This document shows positions 6,599-64,000 of a stretch of 64,000 nucleotides of DNA, one piece after another (within the stretch, counting starts at the first letter, position 1; every line of letters starts with the position of its first letter). The DNA lies in the IMG/VR virus record IMGVR_UViG_3300023179_000013, positions 96,001 to 160,000 of that record; one strand, 5' to 3'. The notes under the pieces were generated by a model that was given only the letters and a program-made list of their open reading frames with translations, did not search any database and was not told the origin of the DNA. Source of the DNA: a virus. A program made the position numbers and the translations under genes.

Positions 6599-7981
6599 AT
6601 GACAACATTAAGTAAATTAAATCAATACGGAAACGCGTTTCAAGTTAAAGTACTAGGAGCACTATTAACACAACGTGAGTTCCTTCTCAACATAGCAGAT
6701 TCATTAGACCCAGAATACTTTGAATCCAGTGCTCATAAATGGACAGTAGAATACGTTCAAAAATACTTCCAACAATATCACACTTATCCCACTATTGAAA
6801 CATTATCAATCGAAATTAAAAAAATTGAAAATGAGGTATTACGAATTTCTCTCACTGACTCACTTCGTGAAGCTTATAAAATGGCTGACGTTAGTGATTT
6901 GGAATGGGTTGAAAAAGAATTTAGCGATTTCTGTAAGAACCAGCAAATGAAAAAAGCCATTATGACCTCTGTTGATCTACTCAACATGGGAGATTATGAT
7001 GGTATCAGAGCATTGATTAACGATGCTATGAAAGCAGGTGAAGATAAAAACGTTGGTTTGGATTATGCAGTAGATATTGAAACACGATATCGCGATGATG
7101 ATAGAGGCGCTATTCCATTCCCTTGGAAAACATTCAACGACCTTACACAAGGTGGTTATGGTAAAGGCGATTTAGTACTACTATTCGGTAACCCAGGCGG
7201 TGGTAAATCATGGGGTGTTATGGCTATGGGTGCTTACGCAGCAGCATTAGGATATAATGTTATCCACTACACACTAGAACTATCTGAAGGGTACGTTGGT
7301 AAACGTTATGATGCAATATTTTCAGGTATTGATGTTGATAAACTAAATGAGCATCGTACAGATGTGGAAGAATCAATTGCTAAGGTTAAGGGTAAAATAA
7401 TGATTAAAGAATACGCACCTAAACGCGCGTCTTTAGATACGATAGAGGCCCATCTTCAGCAACTTGAACATCAGAATGAGTTTAAACCCGATTTGATTAT
7501 AATTGATTATTTGGACTTGCTACGCACTAAAGGTAGAAAGGAACGTAAGGATGAAATTGATGACGTTTACACTGATGCTAAAGGTTTAGCAAAACAGCTC
7601 ATGATTCCAATTGTATCACCATCACAAGCAAATAGAACAGGCGCTGATGAAGATATCTTACAAGCTAAAAACGCAGCAGGATCATACGATAAGATCATGA
7701 TTGGAGATATCATTGTATCATTAGCACGTGGACGTAAAGATAAAGTAAACGGAACAGGTAACTGGCACTTCATCAAAAACAGATATGGTGCTGATGGATT
7801 AACATTCAGCTCCAAAATTAATACCGCAAACGGATTTATAGATATATACGATCAACCTCTAGATGATGAAGAATTTGAAACTAAGAAGAACAATAAGAAA
7901 ACAAATGACTTCTCTGATGTAGGAGTAGAAGATAGATTTGTTCTTCGAAGTAAGTTTGCTAAATTTGAAGAGGAACAATAG
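6599..7981 (+). CDS. DnaB/gp41-like replicative helicase
   Basis: Walker A GNPGGGKS, YTLELS, IIIDYLDLL, SQANR, KNRYG. Confidence 0.9.
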   Translation: MTTLSKLNQYGNAFQVKVLGALLTQREFLLNIADSLDPEYFESSAHKWTVEYVQKYFQQYHTYPTIETLSIEIKKIENEVLRISLTDSLREAYKMADVSDLEWVEKEFSDFCKNQQMKKAIMTSVDLLNMGDYDGIRALINDAMKAGEDKNVGLDYAVDIETRYRDDDRGAIPFPWKTFNDLTQGGYGKGDLVLLFGNPGGGKSWGVMAMGAYAAALGYNVIHYTLELSEGYVGKRYDAIFSGIDVDKLNEHRTDVEESIAKVKGKIMIKEYAPKRASLDTIEAHLQQLEHQNEFKPDLIIIDYLDLLRTKGRKERKDEIDDVYTDAKGLAKQLMIPIVSPSQANRTGADEDILQAKNAAGSYDKIMIGDIIVSLARGRKDKVNGTGNWHFIKNRYGADGLTFSSKINTANGFIDIYDQPLDDEEFETKKNNKKTNDFSDVGVEDRFVLRSKFAKFEEEQ

Positions 7982-15327: not shown

Positions 15328-15449
15328 TACATGAGATAACCCACATATTAGGACTATGTGGTGAAAAACATCTTAATGCTATGGTTATAATGTTTGATTG
15401 GCAAAATCTTAGTCCTATATTTAATTATATAAAAACATTATTCAAATGA
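15324..15449 (+). CDS. 41 aa hypothetical protein (not in ORF track)
   Basis: MIHEITHILGLCGEKH...; ATGA overlaps at both ends fill the gap exactly. Confidence 0.6.
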   Translation: MIHEITHILGLCGEKHLNAMVIMFDWQNLSPIFNYIKTLFK

Positions 15450-16339
15450 GTAAAATAGATCCAAATAAACTACTAATCAGTAGTGATTTCTATTCCATCC
15501 AAGGTGAAGGAATAAGCAGTGGAGTACCATCATATTTCGTTAGATTAGGTATCTGTAACCTAACTTGCGGTATGAGCCGTAAGTTTGCCAATCAATTAGA
15601 GAAAGATAAGAATCTAGAAGACGGTGAAATATTCGTAGGTGATTTACATGCTGAAGGTAAAGCAACTTGGACTTGTGATAGTACATCTCAATGGTTATGG
15701 AGAGGTGAAGATAAAGAATTCCAATATTTAATTGATAGATGGAAGGAACAAGGTATCTATGAAGATATTAAGAATAGTACTATCCATATCATTTGGACTG
15801 GTGGTGAACCTACAATTAAAGGGCATCAAGAAGCAATTGTTAACTTTCATAAGTATTGGAATGATATAGTATACTATGAAACATTGAATAAATTAAAAAA
15901 TACAACTGTATTAGATGAAGATGTATACGATCACATGGATTTAAATCCATTTAATGAAATAGAAACTAATGGTACAGTTGTAATTGAAGATAATTTGTTT
16001 GAATTAATTGATCAAATTAACTGCTCACCCAAGTTAGCAAACTCAGGTATGACTAAGAAGCAACGCTTCAACGAAGAAGCTCTTAAACGCATCATGGAAC
16101 ATCCGAATTATCAATTTAAATTTGTAATATCCAATGAAGAAGACGTACAAGAAATTTTTAGCGAATTTGTGTTACCACTTAGCATACCTCTTAAGAATGT
16201 AGTCTGCATGCCAGGATTAGATGACGTAGCTAACTTTGAAGAGCGTACTCAGTTTTGTTTGGAGATGGCTAAGAAGTATAAGTTCCGTGGATTGACTCGT
16301 TTGCATATTGCAGCTTGGAATAAAACGTTGAATGTATAA
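15446..16339 (+). CDS. queE: 7-carboxy-7-deazaguanine synthase (radical SAM)
   Basis: FYSIQGEG, FVRLGICNLTC...TCDS, TGGEP, IETNGT, SPKL, RLH. Confidence 0.9.
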   Translation: MSKIDPNKLLISSDFYSIQGEGISSGVPSYFVRLGICNLTCGMSRKFANQLEKDKNLEDGEIFVGDLHAEGKATWTCDSTSQWLWRGEDKEFQYLIDRWKEQGIYEDIKNSTIHIIWTGGEPTIKGHQEAIVNFHKYWNDIVYYETLNKLKNTTVLDEDVYDHMDLNPFNEIETNGTVVIEDNLFELIDQINCSPKLANSGMTKKQRFNEEALKRIMEHPNYQFKFVISNEEDVQEIFSEFVLPLSIPLKNVVCMPGLDDVANFEERTQFCLEMAKKYKFRGLTRLHIAAWNKTLNV

Positions 16340-16545
16340 TGAAAGAGCTAGATCTTCATGGTTTAAAACACTATGATGTTAAGGACACAGTTGAGAACTT
16401 TATTCTAATGAATAGTACCCCATTCCGTATTATAACAGGCAGATCAGACAAAATGAGAGAACTAGTAGAAACAACATTGAAAAAACATCGTTTTGAATTT
16501 TATACTCCTGCTCACAACCCAGGAGAAATAATTGTAATAGATTAA
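16339..16545 (+). CDS. Stand-alone minimal Smr-domain protein
   Basis: ELDLHG...RIITG...NPG, the Smr signature. Confidence 0.7.
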   Translation: MKELDLHGLKHYDVKDTVENFILMNSTPFRIITGRSDKMRELVETTLKKHRFEFYTPAHNPGEIIVID

Positions 16546-16547
16546 TT

Positions 16548-16721
16548 ATGCTAGACGCAACTGAACAACGTATTGCTAATTTGCTTAGAAGCAACGGAGC
16601 AACTGACACACAAATTGAAATGTACTTAGATGATATTTTCTCCTTTAGTGATCCCAAGCTATATGAGAATTCTGATGATGAAGATATCTTAAGTGACTTT
16701 GAAGATTGGTTGGGAGAATAA
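16548..16721 (+). CDS. 57 aa acidic hypothetical protein (not in ORF track)
   Basis: MLDATEQRIANLLRSNGATD...FEDWLGE; fills the gap between genes. Confidence 0.55.
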   Translation: MLDATEQRIANLLRSNGATDTQIEMYLDDIFSFSDPKLYENSDDEDILSDFEDWLGE

Positions 16722-16752
16722 ATTTAAAATCATATATTTAATAAAAATAAAG

Positions 16753-17388
16753 ATGGAACTATTAAAGAAATCAAACGGCAATTTAGCTCGTACACCAGAG
16801 CAGGTAGAACAGATGATTGAAAAAGCATCTGAAGCATATGCTCAATTCCTTACAGCAGTAGGATTTGATTATAAAGCAGATAGACAAACAGTAGATACTC
16901 CTCGTCGTGTAGCTAAAGCATGGCTTAAGGATCTTATTGTAGGTAGTATTACTGATGAACCTAACATTACAGTATTCCCTAATGATGATGGGTACAAAGG
17001 ATTAGTAATCCAATCAGGTATTCCTATTGTTAGTATGTGTGCTCACCACAACTTAGCATTTACAGGGTATGCTACCTTAGCATATGTTCCAGGTGAACAA
17101 GTAATTGGATTAAGTAAGTTGAATCGTATTGTAGAATGGTTCTCACGTCGTCCACAGATGCAAGAATCGCTTACACAGCAAATCCACGATTACTTAGCTA
17201 CCAAAATGGATTGTCCGTCTGTAGCAGTTAGTATTGCTTGTAAACACACATGCTGCTCACATCGTGGTATTAAACATCCATCTGTAATGACTACAAATAA
17301 ATTTAGTGGTGTGTTTATGGAAAAGGATAATTTGATCCGTGAAGAATTCCTTCACGCAATTGAAGTTAACGGAACTAAAATGAAATAA
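16753..17388 (+). CDS. folE: GTP cyclohydrolase I
   Basis: DTPRRVAK, SMCAHH, GLSKLNR, QMQE.LT, HTC..RG; start set to ATG 16753. Confidence 0.92.
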   Translation: MELLKKSNGNLARTPEQVEQMIEKASEAYAQFLTAVGFDYKADRQTVDTPRRVAKAWLKDLIVGSITDEPNITVFPNDDGYKGLVIQSGIPIVSMCAHHNLAFTGYATLAYVPGEQVIGLSKLNRIVEWFSRRPQMQESLTQQIHDYLATKMDCPSVAVSIACKHTCCSHRGIKHPSVMTTNKFSGVFMEKDNLIREEFLHAIEVNGTKMK

Positions 17389-17389
17389 T

Positions 17390-17551
17390 ATGCAACCTAA
17401 AGAATCAAAATCAAATTGGCATTTCTGGATTAGTTTTGTTAAATCTTGTATTAGAATATTTGCGGGCTGTGCTATTATAGGTCAAAGCCTAGTAGCAGCA
17501 GGTGTTAGCTTAATTCTAGCTGAGTTTTTAGGTATTATTGAAGAATTATAA
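17390..17551 (+). CDS. 53 aa membrane protein (not in ORF track)
   Basis: HFWISFVKSCIRI...AEFLGIIEEL; hydrophobic. Confidence 0.6.
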   Translation: MQPKESKSNWHFWISFVKSCIRIFAGCAIIGQSLVAAGVSLILAEFLGIIEEL

Positions 17552-17560
17552 AATAAAAAT

Positions 17561-18079
17561 ATGTTAAACGCACAACAAATATTAGACGAAGGATTATTGC
17601 GCCTTGAACGCGCTCAAGGTAAACCAGCTCAAGTTGGTTATGATCTTACCTTAAAGCAAGTTAATGCAGTAGGCAATAAAAGAGATATGGCTAGTCATCG
17701 TATTGGTAAAGTATTAAAAGATAAAACACAACTTACTAACTATGAACCATATGGCTTGATTAATTTAGATGGAGTAACAGGTTGGTTATTATATGAAGGT
17801 GTATATGACATCACATTCAATGAAGGATGTAAAATCCCAGATAATCGTGTAGCATTTATTAAACAACGCTCATCCCTGTACCGCAACGGTGCAATTATTA
17901 ACAGCCCGGTATTTGATCCAGGGTTTGAAACTGAATTTATGGGCACATTAATGTATGTTCATTGTCCAATATTCATTGAGGAAAATGCCAGAGTAGCCCA
18001 AATCTACTTCCACGAATGTACACCAGCTGAAAAGTATGATGGTCAGTGGCAAAATGATAAGCAACGAGCTTCATTATAA
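17561..18079 (+). CDS. dcd: dCTP deaminase / trimeric dUTPase family
   Basis: GYDLT, QRSSLYRNG, FDPGF, RVAQI, YDGQWQ. Confidence 0.8.
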   Translation: MLNAQQILDEGLLRLERAQGKPAQVGYDLTLKQVNAVGNKRDMASHRIGKVLKDKTQLTNYEPYGLINLDGVTGWLLYEGVYDITFNEGCKIPDNRVAFIKQRSSLYRNGAIINSPVFDPGFETEFMGTLMYVHCPIFIEENARVAQIYFHECTPAEKYDGQWQNDKQRASL

Positions 18080-23622: not shown

Positions 23623-23834
23623 TGGCGTTAGTATCTGTAGAATATCATCTTGAAACATGGGAGGAATTTGTTGAATTTTGGAAATCAGACAAAATAGTAT
23701 TCCGTGAAAAAAATATATTTGAGGATGAAAAAGGAAAGAAATGGTACAGATTATATAACGAACCTACATTAAAATATCTTAGAGAAAAAATGTTAAGAGA
23801 CATTGAATATTTAAACAATAAAGTAAATGAGTAA
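23622..23834 (+). CDS. Hypothetical protein between groES and groEL
   Basis: 70 aa; overlaps both neighbours. Confidence 0.55.
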   Translation: MALVSVEYHLETWEEFVEFWKSDKIVFREKNIFEDEKGKKWYRLYNEPTLKYLREKMLRDIEYLNNKVNE

Positions 23835-25455
23835 AATAATTAAATTTGATAGAGAAGCTAAAGAAAAGCTTCAAGCCGGTATTGACAAGGTCAATAATGC
23901 CGTTTCTGTTACAATGGGTCCTTATGGCCGTAACGTATTAATTGAAAAAGAACACGGGCAAGTAGCATCAACTAAAGATGGTGTTACTGTTGCTAAAACA
24001 ATTGTGTTAGAAGATCCAATTGAAAACATGGCTGCTACTGTTATTAAGCAAGCAGCTCAAAAAACAGTAGATGCTGCTGGTGATGGTACTACAACATCAA
24101 CAGTATTAGCTCACGCTATTGCCTCTCAAGCATTGCTAGCAACGTCTTATGCTTCAACAAATGCCACTCAAATAAAGCGTGGTATTGAAGAGGCTGTTAA
24201 GCAAGTAGTAGCTGAGTTGAAAGAAATGTCTACACCTATTACTGATGAAAAGCAAATTAAACAAATTGCTACTCTATCAGCTAACGGAGATGAGGAGATT
24301 GGTAACTTGGTAGCTACCGCTATTGAAAAAGTGGGCAGGGATGGAGTTGTTACTGTTGAAGAGTCTCGTACAGGCGAAACATCACTTGAGATTGTGGAAG
24401 GTATGCAATTCGATCGTGGTTACAAATCCCCTTACATGGTGACAGACAATAATACAATGACAGCAGTATTAGATGAACCATTGTTATTGATTGTAGATAG
24501 CCGAATTACCCAAGTAAAAGATTTACTTCCAATCCTCGAATCAGTATCTCAGCAGAATAAATCACTCTTTATTGTAGCTGAAGATATCGATGGTGAAGCA
24601 CTTGCTACATTGATTGTAAATAAAATGAGAGGTGCTCTTAAAGTAGCTGCTGTTAAAGCACCTGACTTTGGAGATCGCCGAACATTGATTTTAGAAGATA
24701 TCGCTACATTAACAGGTGGTACTGTAGTATCATCTCAAAAAGGTATGCGTTTGGATAAATTCAATAAAGATTGGTTTGGACAAGCTCGTACTATTACTGT
24801 AGGTAAAGAAACAACTACTATTGTTGATGGTAGAGGTGATGCTGATAAGATTGAAGCTCGTATTGTAGAATTAAAAACACAAATTGATGCTTCAACATCA
24901 CCATATGAAATTGAGCGTTTGCAAGATCGCTTAGCTAAGATGGTTGGTGGTGTAGCTATCATTAACGTAGGTGGTGGTACTGAAATCGAAATGAAAGAAA
25001 AGAAAGATCGCCTTGATGATGCTTTACAAGCAACTAAAGCAGCACTTGATGAAGGTATTTTACCTGGTGCTGGTGTTGCTCTATTTAAAGCCAAAGACAT
25101 TATTACAGGTATAGATAATACAGATTTTGGTAAAGGACGTAAAATAGTATTCCAGGCGTGCTCCTCACCATTCACTCAAATCTTAACTAATGCTGGTGAA
25201 GATGCTAATGAATGGAGTGGTAAATGGAGTAAATTCTTCAAAACTGAAAACACTGTTCCTGATATTACTAACAACACCATAGTAAATGCATTTGATTCAG
25301 GTATTATAGACCCAACCAAAGTAGTACGCTCAGCACTTGAAAATGCCGCTGCCGCTGCAGTAACATTACTTATGACTGAGTGTGTTATCCATGAAAAAGT
25401 AGATAAGGATAAAAAACCTGCCGCTAATGATTTCGGAATGGATTTAGGAATGTAA
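23827..25455 (+). CDS. groEL: Chaperonin GroEL
   Basis: TKDGVTVAK, AGDGTTT, EGMQFDRGY, KAPDFGDRR, GIIDPTKV. Confidence 0.96.
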   Translation: MSKIIKFDREAKEKLQAGIDKVNNAVSVTMGPYGRNVLIEKEHGQVASTKDGVTVAKTIVLEDPIENMAATVIKQAAQKTVDAAGDGTTTSTVLAHAIASQALLATSYASTNATQIKRGIEEAVKQVVAELKEMSTPITDEKQIKQIATLSANGDEEIGNLVATAIEKVGRDGVVTVEESRTGETSLEIVEGMQFDRGYKSPYMVTDNNTMTAVLDEPLLLIVDSRITQVKDLLPILESVSQQNKSLFIVAEDIDGEALATLIVNKMRGALKVAAVKAPDFGDRRTLILEDIATLTGGTVVSSQKGMRLDKFNKDWFGQARTITVGKETTTIVDGRGDADKIEARIVELKTQIDASTSPYEIERLQDRLAKMVGGVAIINVGGGTEIEMKEKKDRLDDALQATKAALDEGILPGAGVALFKAKDIITGIDNTDFGKGRKIVFQACSSPFTQILTNAGEDANEWSGKWSKFFKTENTVPDITNNTIVNAFDSGIIDPTKVVRSALENAAAAAVTLLMTECVIHEKVDKDKKPAANDFGMDLGM

Positions 25456-58895: not shown

Positions 58896-58969
58896 CGGGA
58901 TTTAGTACAGTCCGGTAGTATGCTTGGTTTGGGACCAAGAGGTCGTAGGTTCGAATCCTGCAATCCCGA
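58896..58969 (+). tRNA. tRNA-Pro(TGG)
   Basis: CGGGATT/AATCCCG acceptor, CTTGG-TTTGGGA-CCAAG anticodon arm, TTCGAAT T-loop. Confidence 0.93.
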
Positions 58970-58974
58970 CATAA

Positions 58975-59075
58975 TGAGAGGAGTAGACGAAAATCCTACA
59001 CATAGTAAGGTGTACAACTTGCTGTTGATGGAGAAGTAGAAACATTGGAGGAAGTAATTAATTCTCCCCTCTCAA
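58975..59075 (+). ncRNA. Unclassified structured RNA with tRNA-like termini
   Basis: TGAGAGG/CCTCTCA 7-bp closing stem followed by ACA; internal hairpins; no TTCG T-loop. Confidence 0.45.
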
Positions 59076-59078
59076 CAT

Positions 59079-59150
59079 GCTCTGTTCGAATAAGGGTTAG
59101 TTCACCTCCCTTTCACGGAGGTAATACGGGTTCGAATCCCGTACAGAGTA
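59079..59150 (+). tRNA. tRNA-Glu(TTC)
   Basis: CCTCC-CTTTCAC-GGAGG anticodon arm, TTCGAAT T-loop. Confidence 0.93.
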
Positions 59151-59185
59151 CCTGAAGACGGTGCGATAAGCATTGATGCCACGTC

Positions 59186-59286
59186 TGACCCTTAGCTCAG
59201 TAGGTTAGAGCAAACTTATAGTACTCACGCCACTACAAGCGTCGAGGAAATAAGTCGTGCCGCTGGTTCGATTCCAGCAGGGTCAG
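59186..59286 (+). ncRNA. tRNA-like RNA with enlarged anticodon arm
   Basis: Intact acceptor, D and T arms; ~43 nt structured segment replaces the 17 nt anticodon arm. Confidence 0.75.
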
Positions 59287-59305
59287 CAAATTGATCTTTG
59301 AAATT

Positions 59306-59380
59306 GGACCCTTAGCTCAGTTGGTTAGCAGCGGCGCGCTCATAACGCGAAGGTCGTAGGTTCAAGTCCTACAGGGTCCA
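59306..59380 (+). tRNA. tRNA with CAT anticodon (Ile2 or elongator Met)
   Basis: GGACCCT/AGGGTCC acceptor, CGCG-CTCATAA-CGCG. Confidence 0.9.
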
Positions 59381-59385
59381 CGTTC

Positions 59386-59457
59386 GGTCCTGTAGTTCAA
59401 CGGATAGAACAGCTGCCTTCTAAGCAGCGGATACAAGTTCGATTCTTGTCGGGACTA
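59386..59457 (+). tRNA. tRNA-Arg(TCT)
   Basis: GCTGC-CTTCTAA-GCAGC anticodon arm. Confidence 0.93.
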
Positions 59458-59463
59458 CAAAAA

Positions 59464-59495
59464 TTTGGAAGGCAAATATATAGTTCTTACATTTA
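59464..59495 (+). promoter_or_regulatory. Bacteroidetes-type promoter (TTTG-N20-TACATTTA)
   Basis: Ends 6 nt before tRNA-Leu. Confidence 0.6.
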
Positions 59496-59501
59496 ATGTA
59501 T

Positions 59502-59590
59502 GCCCTGGTGGTGAAATAGGTAGACACGCAAGACTTAAAATCTTGTGACCCGCAACGGTCGTGCCGGTTCGATTCCGGCCTAGGGCACCA
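59502..59590 (+). tRNA. tRNA-Leu(TAA)
   Basis: CAAGA-CTTAAAA-TCTTG, long variable arm, encoded CCA. Confidence 0.94.
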
Positions 59591-59602
59591 ATATTTATAA
59601 GT

Positions 59603-59929
59603 ATGGCCTGTCATTGTTTACATTTAAGAGACGCTACTGAATTTTACTCGTTACTTAAACAACGTGACCCTGACTTAATCTCAAAGATGGTCAGATGTGT
59701 ACTCAGTGCTGCCAAGCGAAATAAAGATAAAATAGACATATTTGATATCACGTTTAAATCAATGGATGAATTAACATTCACTATTGATAAGTCTCAATAC
59801 AGAGAAATGTTAAGTAACTGTATGGCAGACATGATTACAGCTGAGGAATATGAATTATGTGCTGAAATCAAAAAGGTATTAGATAAGAAACCTCGCAAGT
59901 CGAGAAAGAAAAAAACAGAAGTTCTTTAA
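59603..59929 (+). CDS. Hypothetical protein with UVR-like motif (paralog-like to 56754)
   Basis: IDIFDI...TIDK and AEEYELCAEIKK; start ATG 59603. Confidence 0.6.
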   Translation: MACHCLHLRDATEFYSLLKQRDPDLISKMVRCVLSAAKRNKDKIDIFDITFKSMDELTFTIDKSQYREMLSNCMADMITAEEYELCAEIKKVLDKKPRKSRKKKTEVL

Positions 59930-59934
59930 TTTAT

Positions 59935-60296
59935 GGGGGAGCCAGGTATTGCTCCGTAATGTGAAGGTACCACTACATGCAGACGGTTGGTAGAAGTCGT
60001 CTTTAAACAAACTGCAAACAACAACTGACGAAATGTCAACAATGACCTTCGACGACCTTATGGCGTTCGTAGGTGCCGATTACGCTGTAGCAGCCTAATC
60101 CGCAAGGGGCAGCTGATAGCCTTGCAACAGAACAGCACTATAGGTTTCCTGTTTTTCCTAAAAAATAGGTGGTGGATGGCACGTTAACCAAAACTAGCGG
60201 CCCCAAATTACTGATCAGTTAATTCAGATCTAAGCATGTGATACGCTGGTGTTATTGTTCCTTACGGATACACGGGTTCGATTCCCGTCTCCTCCA
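59935..60296 (+). ncRNA. ssrA: tmRNA
   Basis: GGGGGAG/CTCCTCC-A acceptor with G3.U70, T arm ACGGG-TTCGATT-CCCGT, P2 TCCGTAA/TTACGGA, tag ORF 60027-60098 ending YAVAA*. Confidence 0.92.
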
Positions 60297-60349
60297 CAAG
60301 TACTTACTCCCCTTCCCATAAAACAGGGCGCTTAGAGTAAGTCTTTTCT

Positions 60350-60381
60350 TAAGGGTGGTTCGCTAGCGAACCGCCCTTTTT
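60350..60381 (+). terminator. Intrinsic terminator
   Basis: AAGGGTGGTTCGC/GCGAACCGCCCTT plus T tract. Confidence 0.8.
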
Positions 60382-60409: not shown

Positions 60410-60925
60410 ATGAGAACTTTATTTACAACAATATTGATATCATTATATACGGTACTAGCCGCTCAAAAAGCTGTTCCTGAGGGAGAAATAAATTCACCCA
60501 CATCTCCCTTCACCACAGTACATATTGGTACTGTTACTAATAAAGTTAAAATAGGCCCACTTACTGGAAATAAAAACTTAGCATTTGGTGTTAAAAACAT
60601 AACTGAAGAAGCTATACTAGATAAAGGATATGATTTGACTGATAGCTCAGAACTTAGATTAGATTTAGAGATAATTTATCTTGACATTCAACAAACATCA
60701 ACTGGTGTAAGTGTGTTTCATAAAACAGAAAACGAAACAATAATTAGAATAAAAGGTATTCTTTATATAAACAATAAAAAATCAAAAGAATACGTTGCAA
60801 CAGGCAAGTCCTCCGAAATATCTACATCTACAATGATTATTGATGAAGGTGGTGGTTTTAATCAAGCTTCGGCTCGTTCTGCTTTGAAAAAAACCATTAT
60901 TAACCTAATCGAAAAACTCCTATGA
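60410..60925 (+). CDS. Secreted protein (possible CsgG/LptE-like alpha/beta fold)
   Basis: Signal peptide ending A-Q; GVKNITEE, C-terminal helix SALKKTI. Confidence 0.55.
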   Translation: MRTLFTTILISLYTVLAAQKAVPEGEINSPTSPFTTVHIGTVTNKVKIGPLTGNKNLAFGVKNITEEAILDKGYDLTDSSELRLDLEIIYLDIQQTSTGVSVFHKTENETIIRIKGILYINNKKSKEYVATGKSSEISTSTMIIDEGGGFNQASARSALKKTIINLIEKLL

Positions 60926-62811
60926 AAAAACTATTATTAGCAATTGCGCTTTTAATCAGTTATGTAACCACATTCGCTCAAACACCTCAAATTGGACATT
61001 TCCAAACACTAGCCACTGTTAGAAGAGGTGATACATTAGATGTTACCTGGTATTATAGACCTGGTGCTCCTGACATTCGTACATTCCAAGTTGATTGGCA
61101 GTACAAGAAAACATTATTAACTTATTTATCTACCACGGTAGATGCTTCAGTTAATGGTATGTCTCCATCTGTAAGTTATAAAACTTGGGATAACTACAAG
61201 TATAATAACTATTCAAATGGTACTTATACTTATTCATCAAATACAGATTGGACAGTAGGACGTAACTATTTAGTATTATCAAGTGGTAATACAATTGGTT
61301 CAAACGGCTACATAATCCACAACAAATATAAGATTAATGCTGTAGCTCCAAACTACGTATCAGATACAATTACTGTAAACTGGGCTCGTATGTTTGACGT
61401 GAATGGTAATACTATTGGTGATAACGTAGCTCAACTTACAAACCAAAAATTAGCTATTAAATTATTAGGTAACTTAACATTATCAGGTAAAGTATGGTTA
61501 GGACCAAATATGGCTTTAAAACCTGTAGTTATCTGTACTCAAGCTAATAACGGTGCTTTTATAGATTCAATCACAGTAAATACTGATGGTACTTATACTT
61601 TAGATAATATAGATGAAAATACAAGGTATAAATTAACAGTTAAATTCCCATCTGCTTTAGCAACTATTAGAGATAATGCTGTAACAATTGCTGATGCTGT
61701 TAAAACATATGATGAATATACAGTAACAGACGTTAACCAAACATTCAGTCGTCAGTACTTAAAATATGGTTTATCTTATTTGATTGCTGATGTTAACAAA
61801 ACAGGTGCATTAGATGGTGGTGATGCTTATTCAATCTATGCTTCAGTATCAGGATTAAAACCAATTGATACAACTAAAGTATTAAACGTATTTAAAAAAG
61901 ATGTATATGATTCATTAGTATTAGGTGCTAACCAATGGAATGATTGGGTTACTTATATTAACGGAGTAACTTACATTTACGATAGTGTAGGTACAGTTAA
62001 CTTAACTGGGGTTGATATTAAGTATTTCATCTTAGGTGACGTTGATAGAAGCCATTCATCTCCAGTATACGATGCAGGTGGTGGATTAATCGTAGGTGCT
62101 AGATATATTGGTAATTTAGATATTAGCATTCCAAATGTATCTGCTCCAACAGGTCAAGCAATGTATGCTTCATTTAATATGAATACAAACGGTATTAAAA
62201 ATGATGGTCTACAGTTTGAAATGAGATACGATCCAACTAAAGTTAAATTTGAAGAAATTGTATCTAATATTCAAGGTCCTTGGTTACAATATTTAACACA
62301 TGATGAAGCAAATGGTATTATCCGTTTTGGTGGAATGAATAATCAAACTGCGGGTTCATTAGTTAATAATGTAACTCCATTTAGATTAAAATTCTCTCCA
62401 ATTGGAACAGGTGATGTATTAACTAACGTATATGTTAGACAATTAATGGATGCTTCTGATAAAAACGGAGATCACTTTAACATCAATTTACAATCTGATT
62501 ATGTAGTATTAGCTACAAGACCAGCTCCAATTGCAACACCTGAGAAAGAAATAACTGCTATGATTCGTCCAAATCCAACAAGTGGATTTTTTGAATTGGT
62601 AGTTACTTTCCCAAACAACAATATGGCAATGAATGCTAGAGTATATGATGTACAAGGTAGATTAGTAAAAGAAATAGGTAAAGTAGCTAGTGATAATTAC
62701 TATACAACTGTAATTAAACAAGTTGATTTAACGCAAGCTAGAGATGGTCACTATTTATTAGTGTTAGATAACGAAAGTAAAAAATTAACTAAACAATTTA
62801 TAAAAGCATAA
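60922..62811 (+). CDS. Secreted protein with dockerin/cohesin-like modules and T9SS type A C-terminal sorting domain
   Basis: Signal peptide ending FA-Q; ADVNKTGALDGGD; GLQFEMRYDP; C-terminus IRPNPT..VYDVQGRLV..GHYLLVL..KQFIK. Confidence 0.85.
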   Translation: MKKLLLAIALLISYVTTFAQTPQIGHFQTLATVRRGDTLDVTWYYRPGAPDIRTFQVDWQYKKTLLTYLSTTVDASVNGMSPSVSYKTWDNYKYNNYSNGTYTYSSNTDWTVGRNYLVLSSGNTIGSNGYIIHNKYKINAVAPNYVSDTITVNWARMFDVNGNTIGDNVAQLTNQKLAIKLLGNLTLSGKVWLGPNMALKPVVICTQANNGAFIDSITVNTDGTYTLDNIDENTRYKLTVKFPSALATIRDNAVTIADAVKTYDEYTVTDVNQTFSRQYLKYGLSYLIADVNKTGALDGGDAYSIYASVSGLKPIDTTKVLNVFKKDVYDSLVLGANQWNDWVTYINGVTYIYDSVGTVNLTGVDIKYFILGDVDRSHSSPVYDAGGGLIVGARYIGNLDISIPNVSAPTGQAMYASFNMNTNGIKNDGLQFEMRYDPTKVKFEEIVSNIQGPWLQYLTHDEANGIIRFGGMNNQTAGSLVNNVTPFRLKFSPIGTGDVLTNVYVRQLMDASDKNGDHFNINLQSDYVVLATRPAPIATPEKEITAMIRPNPTSGFFELVVTFPNNNMAMNARVYDVQGRLVKEIGKVASDNYYTTVIKQVDLTQARDGHYLLVLDNESKKLTKQFIKA

Positions 62812-62814
62812 TTT

Positions 62815-63147
62815 ATGTCAGAAGAAACAAACGTACAAGACCATAACGACGGAACTTGGTCAGGTCTTAAAAAAACAATCATTGGTACTATAAGTACAGC
62901 TATATTAGGTGCTGGTACTTGGTTTATGACTACTTTCTTTGGTGGCCATAAAGAAGATAAAGAAGAACCTAAAACAGAACAAGCTACTCCAGCTGCTCAA
63001 CCTACTATTGTTATTAATAATACTCAACAGCAACAACAAGCTGCTGGTGGAACAAAAGTAATCGAACGCGTAGTTGAAAAACCAGCTGCTAAACCAGCTG
63101 AGCCAGCTAAGCCTAAGAAGGAGTTTTCGGAAGAACCAAAATGGTAA
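62815..63147 (+). CDS. Single-pass membrane protein
   Basis: One TM segment, low-complexity Q/P/K tail. Confidence 0.6.
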   Translation: MSEETNVQDHNDGTWSGLKKTIIGTISTAILGAGTWFMTTFFGGHKEDKEEPKTEQATPAAQPTIVINNTQQQQQAAGGTKVIERVVEKPAAKPAEPAKPKKEFSEEPKW

Positions 63148-63169
63148 TTAACAATTAAAATTTAAAAGT

Positions 63170-63436
63170 ATGAAATGGTTTAAATCGTTGTTCGATGATA
63201 ACAACACAATCAATGAAAAATCAGTTGTAGGATTTTTAGCTTTCTTTATGATGGTAATTGCTTTAGGCGTTGACATCATTACTGGATGGCTTGGAAGAGA
63301 ATTCATGATTAATGAATTTATCTTTGATGGCTTTATGGTAATTGTATTAGGTTCATTTGGTATTGGATCTATTGACAAGTTTATCAATGCTAAGCATAAT
63401 AAAAAACCAGAAGAAGAAACTCCAACTGAAGAATAA
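63170..63436 (+). CDS. Small two-TM membrane protein (holin-like)
   Basis: Two TM segments, charged C-terminus. Confidence 0.5.
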   Translation: MKWFKSLFDDNNTINEKSVVGFLAFFMMVIALGVDIITGWLGREFMINEFIFDGFMVIVLGSFGIGSIDKFINAKHNKKPEEETPTEE

Positions 63437-64000
63437 TGGAAAAAAAGTCTAATATGATTAAAGCAATTATTGGTATAATTACGTACTTCATATTGATGTT
63501 TACACTAGCTACTAAGTGTAATGCTCAAGTAGTAGGTAAAACTACAACTGAAGATTATAAAGCATCATTTGAAAAAAAATCAAATATTGATAGTCTATTA
63601 GATTATGACGGCCCTAAAATCCCAATTCAGATACTTAGCTTAGGCATCAGTGATGATGTCTATGCTATGTATCCTGAATTAAAGGATAAGCGTGTTGGGT
63701 TAGGTGTAACTAACATTGTAGTTGAATTTTTAGAAGAAACTAACCACTTTACTTTTACTGAAGATAAAACTGAAATTAAAAATAGAATGGTTAAGCAATT
63801 CCAAGCGTCACAATCTGGAATTACTGAAGATAAATTAGATGGTAGAGGTAAAATTAGATTAGCTCATTACTTCGCTTATATAGAAGTATATGACTTTTCA
63901 GTTTCAGAAGATGAAACAGTAAATATGAAAGATGGAGTTAAAAATACTGTTGTGACTCGTCTTGGTTTACAAGTTAAATTTGTTGATGCTGAAACAGGTG
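63436..64000 (+). CDS. 3'-truncated CsgG/FlgT-like exported protein
   Basis: Manually translated: signal peptide ending NA-Q, GLGVTNIVVEFLEETNHFTF...QVKFVDAETG; runs off the window. Confidence 0.6.
   Translation, partial: MEKKSNMIKAIIGIITYFILMFTLATKCNAQVVGKTTTEDYKASFEKKSNIDSLLDYDGPKIPIQILSLGISDDVYAMYPELKDKRVGLGVTNIVVEFLEETNHFTFTEDKTEIKNRMVKQFQASQSGITEDKLDGRGKIRLAHYFAYIEVYDFSVSEDETVNMKDGVKNTVVTRLGLQVKFVDAETG

Follow-up and report, generated by a model that had tools for sequence, protein, structure and literature searches.

Curli-like CsgG/CsgF clusters have been reported in pelagimyophages (HTVC008M group) and in the Methylophilales phage Melnitz (PMC7029224; PMC9004378), and a role in lysis timing was proposed for the CsgG/CsgF pair of Melnitz (PMC9004378). 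A phage of Bacteroidota, 'Cryophage', was demonstrated to encode cargo with type A signals of the secretion system known as type IX (T9SS), which varies between phage variants and presumably makes use of the host system (Bellas et al. 2020, PMC7468147). In literature searches, phage T9SS cargo was found reported only this once, and phage CsgG/CsgF clusters in pelagimyophages and Melnitz; these are precedents for parts only of the locus described here, and the searches found no paper on the combined module. We analyzed a stretch of 64,000 nucleotides (the window) that corresponds to positions 96001-160000 of the virus record IMGVR_UViG_3300023179_000013 (IMG/VR; the full record is called G000), at the end of which begins an operon of eight genes, A to H. 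By sequence and by modeled folds, this operon is predicted to send phage proteins into every layer of the envelope of an infected Bacteroidota cell, the host being Flavobacterium-type. We tentatively suggest, as a reading that we consider possible but somewhat short of probable, that the operon displays or anchors swappable glycan-binding heads on the infected cell by way of an adaptor in which a cohesin is joined to a T9SS C-terminal domain (CTD).

Genes A-H occupy 7.4 kb (G000 156410-163804), 3.8 kb of which lie past the window edge. Positions past that edge are given in L003 coordinates (window position minus 59000), which cover the genome beyond the window. The initial annotation had placed an operon of exported proteins at 60410-64000. 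Open reading frames (ORFs) are indeed found at these coordinates, all on the + strand, but position 64000 is simply the edge of the window, and half of the operon (through H) lies beyond it. The long ORFs are all on the + strand, and the A-H genes are tightly coupled or overlap. In a crude whole-genome scan (169 kb), the proteins with signal peptides fell almost all within A-H. Because of this concentration and the tight coupling, and because A-H are bracketed by the only two + strand terminators with 12-bp stems, we read the eight genes as one putative phage transcription unit. Six of the products have Sec signal peptides, all six of which end in [A/G]-Q, and such ends fit the 'Q-rule' for substrates of signal peptidase I in Bacteroidetes. 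Promoter patterns of the Bacteroidetes type occurred no more often than expected by chance, and a sigma-70 promoter scan gave a result below shuffled expectation.

Protein B, of which all 537 homologues are named hypothetical, consists of a signal peptide, a beta-sandwich head (residues 21-186), an Ig-like domain of CarboxypepD_reg type (187-250), a dockerin-like region, a cohesin and a type A T9SS CTD, in this order. The Sec signal assigned earlier to this protein of 629 amino acids (aa) was borne out by a hydrophobic span at residues 1-22 with a cleavage-type FAQ, the Q of which (Q20) is invariant in 23 orthologues. A sequence search with B against PDB chains gave no match. The fold was predicted from an alignment of the 23 orthologues (53-86% identity), with a mean predicted local distance difference test score (pLDDT) of 68 and values of about 80-90 in the cohesin and CTD parts, the cohesin being modeled at about 80. 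The cohesin-like domain of the initial annotation was recovered in the model: VIA-align superposed B 397-535 on the cohesin 6kgc_A with a Z of 15.3 and a root-mean-square deviation (rmsd) of 2.3 A over 135 of 144 residues, and more than 30 cohesin entries of types I, II and III scored Z 11-15, well above unrelated rows. A search with a hidden Markov model (HMM) of cohesins, also suggested earlier, gave a divided answer; 11 of the 23 orthologues matched Pfam Cohesin (PF00963, best E 7.8e-6), whereas B itself had no match at E <= 1. By the superposition, B is predicted to carry the jelly-roll beta-sandwich fold of cohesins. A second cohesin was considered for B 21-186, which falls near ESM-Atlas clusters with 13-18% Cohesin members (score 0.92), but hhalign against the B cohesin gave a probability of 0.1%, and this candidate was kept as a lead only.

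The type A CTD that had been assigned to B was confirmed by TIGR04183 (30.9 bits; cut-off 23) and by Por_Secre_tail (PF18962; 32.5 bits; cut-off 27), the CTD scoring 36.7 bits in a six-frame search of the genome; PF18962 was matched by all 23 orthologues. In the model, B 543-629 was superposed on the CTD of PorU (6za2_A) with Z 11.2 and rmsd 1.8 A, and on the CTD of NucA within the translocon (8glk_D) with Z 10.0 over 75 of 75 residues. Residues P550, N551, P552, D576, G579, G609 and Y611 are invariant in the 23 orthologues; the motifs that define T9SS CTDs are PNP..G, D..G and G.Y. By HMM, conserved motifs and fold, B has the features of a canonical type A T9SS cargo, and T9SS-dependent export is predicted for it.

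In addition to the cohesin and the CTD, B has one loop of EF-hand/dockerin type (DVNKTGALDGGD), and lectin protein H has another (DVNQNGVLDLGD, H 396-407). Positions 1, 3, 5, 9 and 12 of both loops are predicted to suit Ca binding, both loops are followed by a helix, and these positions are invariant in alignments (in the 23 B orthologues, D290, N292, D298, G300 and D301). A whole-genome pattern scan found such Ca-loops only in these two exported proteins, one in each, and did not find the two tandem loop-helix repeats of a type I dockerin. Hence, the dockerin-like Ca-binding repeat of the initial annotation stands as a single EF-hand-type loop, but the dockerin HMM (Dockerin_1, PF00404; gathering score 22.9 bits) matched neither B nor its 22 orthologues. 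On H the same model scored 12.1 bits, and the loop was matched below threshold in 10 of 19 H orthologues (best E 0.0013; 18.6 bits in contig L039), with matches confined to the latter half of the 57-position profile (29-56). The loops lie in a longer stretch common to both proteins (B 187-380 and H 298-476; 35% identity, E 2e-14), which comprises the Ig domain, the Ca-loop and an alpha/beta stretch and closes with the motif LGD(V/I)(D/N)xSHSS. Immediately after this motif H comes to its end, whereas B continues with the cohesin. The head ahead of the module in H varies by phage: it is a C-type lectin here and in 13 of 19, PA14 in L020 and GEVED in L051.

The strongest evidence for a separable adaptor is a gene fission. 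In the cultured Flavobacterium phage vB_FspM_immuto, B is represented by two genes, one for a 364-aa protein that has its own signal peptide and ends in LGDVNGTGLN, and, 2 bases on, one for a 244-aa protein that consists of a signal peptide, cohesin and CTD only and bears the annotation of a cohesin domain protein. When the short cohesin-CTD protein was used as the query of a scan, the split form was detected in 20 viral contigs, in which the head proteins end in LGD[AV]NGTGxN; more distant clades have a fused B of about 633 aa. The split is not a frameshift artefact, because the second signal peptide is conserved. B is cut in the immuto clade at the same boundary at which H ends, a fission that is new, and because the split falls exactly at the module boundary, it argues that the cohesin-CTD may be a separable adaptor that acts in trans with proteins bearing the docking module. 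A self-assembling cohesin/dockerin-like arrangement, with predicted binding between the two parts, is plausible, and is strengthened by the conserved fission.

The arrangement of the operon is widely kept. The order A-B-C-E-F-H was found in 59 IMG/VR contigs at 44-97% identity, some of them from genomes of 180-320 kb, with A adjoining B in 58 of the 59 loci; a second scan, with the short cohesin-CTD protein, added 27 viral contigs. The same block is present in immuto (nuclease, lectin, head protein, cohesin protein, C, E, F and A), and in its clade some of the operon proteins are down to about 25-30% identity. These data bear on two other explanations. The first is that A-H are loose, independent exported accessory genes (morons) that have a transcription unit in common and no mutual assembly. 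It would account for G and D, which enter and leave the block between phages, and for the genes inserted in relatives, namely, one for a membrane protein of type II (X) and one for a protein like TonB-dependent receptors. We regard it as very unlikely in view of an order that 59 contigs maintain even at identities as low as 44-56%, and the immuto clade at about 25-30% for some of the proteins, of the module common to B and H, and of the fission and fusion of B that tie the cohesin-CTD to the docking module. The second is that host DNA was misjoined to a phage assembly, or that the block is a cellular island; host contamination had been named in the initial annotation as a finding that would overturn it. 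T9SS CTD, cohesin and CsgG domains are typical of cells, and two E matches occur in bins of bacterial metagenome-assembled genomes (MAGs), but the MAG contig L064 itself holds the whole phage block and a homologue of the phage GH19 endolysin. The source record, a complete virus genome, has 168,946 bp and direct terminal repeats; the window encodes a phage DNA polymerase, a ribonucleotide reductase and GroEL, phage genes flank A-H on both sides, and G+C is even across the A-E region, with a composition matching that of the flanking phage DNA. Together with the syntenic viral contigs (59 and 27) and an isolated, sequenced phage, these observations establish that the region is phage DNA; a cellular origin is refuted as far as sequence data allow, and its probability is practically negligible.

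Two exported proteins, CsgG-like or alpha/beta, had been reported to flank B. E, for which there are more than 6,000 homologues (JGI names some of them CsgG), was modeled with a pLDDT of 81.6 and was most similar to CsgG (Foldseek E 1.8e-7); VIA superposed it on 4uv2_F with Z 13.9 and rmsd 3.3 A over 182 residues, and eight CsgG entries scored Z 12.6-13.9. The next folds, PelC, FlgT, LptE and TraT, followed at Z 7.6-10 (maximum 10.1), the first three being 3-4 Z units under CsgG. A is a distant relative of E by profile-profile comparison (hhalign probability 76%, E 2.3e-5, 126 columns), and its sole Pfam match is a weak one to Lipoprotein_16. The CsgG-like assignment holds for both proteins at these levels, but the CsgG HMM (Pfam PF03783) matched neither E nor A and had no match in the six-frame search of the genome at E <= 10. 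A search with E against PDB chains also gave no match. Among 36 diverse members of the E family, 15 matched Pfam CsgG (best E 1.9e-17) and 7 matched LpoB; because these 15 more distant members match, E appears to belong to the wider CsgG superfamily. The cluster names of distant E relatives show only caspase and kinase fusions. E has no lipobox Cys: it reads ..LATKCNAQ.., with K before the Cys and a cleavage-type A-Q site, and its orthologues read SSAQ, LPAQ or YAQ, without Cys, whereas the consensus of the distant cellular relatives has a GC lipobox. Long strands of the E monomer model lie at residues 145-163, 167-184 and 190-205, and the hairpin tip is rich in charged residues as read from the sequence. 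No csgE, csgF or curlin partners of E were found; CsgF was absent from the six-frame genome search, and curlin-like repeats were not seen.

No other member of the operon is as conserved as E, which has a median identity of 73%, against 56% for B, in the 43 loci where B has 53-61%; a median of 73% also holds for E in 41 distant viral loci. In L064, a contig binned with a Sediminibacterium MAG (E at 7125-7757), E retains 82% identity, compared with 27% for B, 42% for A and 43% for F. This conservation suggests that E may be a tightly constrained oligomer or may have a conserved host partner. One explanation in which E is central is an egress or lysis-timing device, in which E and A, barrel F and membrane proteins C and D would form or gate an outer-envelope pore, so that the outer membrane would be permeabilized or weakened late in infection by an analogue of spanins or pinholins, with the lectin and cohesin as accessories. 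Such a role has been proposed for the CsgG/CsgF pair of Melnitz, which provides a published case for phage CsgG (PMC9004378). D, with its two spans, resembles a class II holin and in relatives usually lies beside the GH19 endolysin; because of this usual place, D is probably not a core member of the operon. In L039 and L016 an endolysin lies directly 3' of H. However, the GH19 endolysin of this phage (G000 20098-20694) is ~136 kb away, E lacks a lipobox and has a long hairpin rich in charged residues, with membrane insertion putative, and a lysis device leaves the T9SS-tagged cohesin and the swapped lectin, PA14 and GEVED heads unexplained. We therefore consider lysis timing rather unlikely as the function of the operon.

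Another explanation concerns the T9SS itself. B may be a decoy cargo that occupies or blocks the host translocon and attachment machinery, with E, A and F aimed at other outer-membrane machines; gliding adhesins and T9SS-delivered phage receptors would then not be displayed, and superinfection would be excluded by shutdown. Phage-resistant Flavobacterium mutants often map to gliding or T9SS genes, which are relevant to adsorption. This background, the canonical CTD on B and the extreme conservation of E, which suggests a conserved host target, all speak for interference. A blocker, however, has no need of a cohesin, of a conserved 165-residue head or of partners with exchangeable lectin heads, and the free cohesin-CTD of the immuto clade resembles an adaptor more than a plug. 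Interference with the T9SS is, in our view, quite unlikely.

We favor the display of heads because of the unity of the operon, the T9SS cargo, the cohesin, the common docking module, the fission, the swappable heads, the conserved synteny, the CsgG-like E and the glycan genes of the phage. In the proposed mechanism, the operon proteins would cross the inner membrane by Sec, and the host T9SS would carry the cohesin-CTD unit to the cell surface, where it would serve as a socket for the dockerin-like modules, that of H and that of the head part of B itself, which would plug into it. In this way, exchangeable heads (C-type lectin, PA14 or GEVED) would reach the surface of the infected cell or be retained there. 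An accompanying envelope complex may be formed by E and A (ring-type CsgG-fold proteins), F (an outer-membrane barrel) and C (an inner-membrane protein). The likeliest purpose would be to remodel the surface to the benefit of the phage, by masking or occupying glycans or receptors or by making infected cells sticky; masking would exclude superinfecting phages and keep progeny from sticking to debris. The initial annotation, which saw only half of the operon, had proposed that the phage uses the host T9SS to build a self-assembling surface or trans-envelope structure, with exclusion, aggregation or T9SS jamming as putative purposes, and its core, that is, phage DNA, a canonical T9SS cargo and a plausible self-assembling arrangement, was retained.

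Several points weigh against the display of heads. The dockerin-like element is seen as a single loop under the Pfam threshold, in a region of B modeled at pLDDT < 50, and it is from the logic of gene fission and fusion, and from nothing else, that the plug-and-socket step is argued. H is without a CTD and would need co-transport with B or another route through the outer membrane, and we know of no precedent for T9SS co-transport of a non-covalent complex. The model gives E no specific job, despite the top conservation of this protein. The module abuts an endolysin in some relatives, which a lysis role would fit equally well. Binding, export and localization are all predicted. A related but distinct possibility is that the cohesin-CTD is a secretion adaptor: folded proteins that have the dockerin-like module and no T9SS signal would be bound in the periplasm and carried through the translocon non-covalently, or would be captured at the surface, with E and F forming a second, phage-built outer-membrane machine. 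Such an adaptor is, in our view, unlikely.

Features of the operon and its edges, in window coordinates or, past the window end, in L003 coordinates
Feature	Position	Strand	Basis or remarks
Terminator-like hairpin	window 60351-60378 (L003 1351-1378)	+	12-bp stem and T run; between tmRNA gene and A; upstream operon edge
Gene A, 171 aa	window 60410-60925	+	exported, short distant relative of E; signal peptide ends LAAQ
Gene B, 629 aa	window 60922-62811	+	ORF, HMM, orthologue alignment, predicted fold
EF-hand/dockerin-type Ca-loop, B 290-301	window 61789-61824	+	whole-genome pattern scan; helix AYSIYASVSG follows
Motif GDVDRSHSS, B 372-380	window 62035-62061	+	end of B/H module; exact split point of B in immuto clade
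Predicted cohesin domain, B 397-535	window 62110-62526	+	VIA-align superposition; orthologue PF00963 matches
T9SS type A C-terminal sorting domain, B 543-629	window 62548-62808	+	PF18962, TIGR04183, fold
Gene C, 110 aa	window 62815-63147	+	DGTWSGLKKT N-terminus; Gly/Thr-rich probable membrane span; Pro/Ala/Lys/Glu-rich tail
Gene D, 88 aa, holin-like	window 63170-63436	+	Kyte-Doolittle spans 14-42 and 45-68
Gene E, 251 aa, exported, predicted CsgG fold	window 63436-64000, L003 4436-5191	+	first 188 codons in window, last 63 beyond
Gene F, 480 aa, outer-membrane-barrel-like	L003 5312-6754	+	sequence pattern, weak Atlas leads
Gene G, 207 aa, exported nuclease	L003 6751-7374	+	Endonuclease_NS E 3.8e-40; signal peptide
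Gene H, 477 aa, C-type lectin	L003 7371-8804	+	Lectin_C 28.5 bits (cut-off 22.6)
Terminator-like hairpin	L003 8815-8841	+	12-bp stem and T run; just 3' of H

The remaining operon proteins are less readily classified. Two small membrane proteins had been described beside B; D has two clear hydrophobic spans, but the single span of C falls below the Kyte-Doolittle threshold. C always follows B, its N-terminus and weakly hydrophobic span are conserved, and its residues 1-55 are 60% identical to the immuto counterpart. It had no family match above noise, PHROGs giving only a low-complexity Zot-like match, and PHROGs returned nothing for A, B, D and E. Many relatives encode X, a type II membrane protein of 180-225 aa, between C and E (L039 12246-12791; L016 4443-5120; L034 8927-9475), which has an N-terminus reading ..FKDLLNSMMKRRW.. 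and an acidic DGDG-rich tail with four Cys; X is absent from this phage, where the holin-like D stands in its place. F comprises a conserved N-domain, with DPCT as an invariant motif and with another Cys, then a Gly/Asn/Ser linker that varies, and a C-domain of ~215 residues that is again conserved (65-90% identical). The nearest named neighbors of the C-domain are Phage_OMP and OMP_b-brl (score 0.87-0.88), at the level of leads, with a poor Atlas model (predicted template modeling score 0.38). F had no Pfam match, and its assignment to a named barrel family was rejected in view of this and the weak Atlas scores, so that 'barrel-like' denotes the sequence pattern and these leads. A CsgF-like start of F, suggested by the likeness of its mature N-terminus (T-x-T-Y-x-F-I-D-P-C-T) to that of CsgF, is an unsupported lead, as a profile built from 22 N-domains of F matched no CsgF chain in PDB and had no Pfam CsgF match at E <= 10. 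The position of G differs between phages.

In L020, the block includes, after the PA14 docking protein, a gene for a 749-aa TonB-dependent-receptor-like protein with Plug and OMP_b-brl_3 (15400-17649). Directly 5' of the operon in this phage, six tRNA genes are followed by a transfer-messenger RNA (tmRNA) gene (window 58896-60299; Rfam RF00023, 61.4 bits); a 95-nt 'tRNA-Val' reported by ARAGORN at window 59193-59287 was not confirmed by Rfam. The GroEL-type chaperonin lies at window 23827-25455 (phrog_5725, E 1.5e-151). A sugar-biosynthesis island of roughly 25 kb (window ~29900-56000) encodes glycosyltransferases, two NDP-sugar dehydratase/epimerases, a DegT aminotransferase, a B12/radical SAM enzyme and a methyltransferase. 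The operon lectin could have the product of this island as its ligand or target, with the island as a supplier or modifier of glycans. Farther 3' than the operon are genes for an NlpC/P60 peptidase with a signal peptide (L003 10313-10756; E 8.2e-26) and for a DUF932 protein (L003 12733-13521).

The module is common, being present in 59 and 27 viral contigs in the two scans, with thousands of metagenome homologues of E. If heads are displayed as proposed, the large phages that infect Flavobacteria and related bacteria, and that abound in lakes and seas, would rebuild the surface of infected cells with a modular lectin display of their own. This would matter for superinfection exclusion, for whether infected cells aggregate and sink, and for cargo selection by the T9SS. 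If the cohesin-CTD is instead a secretion adaptor, the phage would retarget the host T9SS to any head domain swapped in, and this would be the first 'hitch-hiker' type IX secretion as well as the first display system of cohesin-dockerin type to be encoded by a virus. The module is present in a cultured pair, phage immuto with Flavobacterium sp. LMO8, and hence, direct testing is possible. The cohesin-CTD adaptor may also become a ready-made surface-display tool for Bacteroidota.

Compared with known systems, the locus resembles that of pelagimyophages and Melnitz in belonging to a large aquatic myophage and in that a small operon for exported proteins includes a protein of CsgG type but no curlin subunits; like Melnitz, the phage encodes a tmRNA, the gene of which adjoins the operon here. 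Those phages have recognizable CsgG and CsgF, whereas no Pfam CsgG or CsgF match is found in this genome and E is without a lipobox; moreover, a T9SS-tagged cohesin, lectin proteins and a barrel protein are present in the operon in addition, and the hosts are Bacteroidota rather than Proteobacteria. The Cryophage cargo, namely, an endoglucanase, a GH39 protein and a PA14 protein, each has its own CTD. In contrast, it is a cohesin adaptor that has the CTD here; proteins with lectin, PA14 or GEVED heads are without one, and B stands within a conserved multi-gene envelope module.

The anchoring scaffoldins of cohesin-dockerin systems (OlpA, OlpC and SdbA of C. thermocellum) also join a surface-anchoring unit to a cohesin, the fold of which is matched by the model of B at a Z of about 15, and cellulosomal and non-cellulosomal assemblies likewise place different functional heads on a common Ca-loop docking element. 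Unlike scaffoldins, B would be anchored by a T9SS CTD and not by sortase or SLH, a single loop under the Pfam cut-off makes up the docking element in place of the two repeats of a dockerin, the heads are lectins and not enzymes, and the system is encoded by a virus. Ring lipoproteins of the CsgG/HfaB family and related ones, which act together with a partner in the outer membrane (CsgG-CsgF, PelC-PelB, LptE-LptD and TraT), are comparable to E, the model of which has their alpha/beta fold and which is encoded beside a barrel-like F; HfaB-HfaA/D of Caulobacter is presumably a further relative within the family. Unlike them, E has a signal peptidase I-type site (Q at +1) and is predicted not to be lipidated, and a ring or channel is predicted at most. 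Finally, surface-exclusion proteins such as Llp of T5, Cor of phi80 and N15, and TraT of the F plasmid are exported proteins of mobile elements that alter the host surface and thereby block further infection, as is proposed here. Those are single small lipoproteins with one receptor each, and apart from a weak fold match of TraT to E (Z 7.6), they have no relation to the operon proteins in sequence or fold, so that the link is one of functional analogy.

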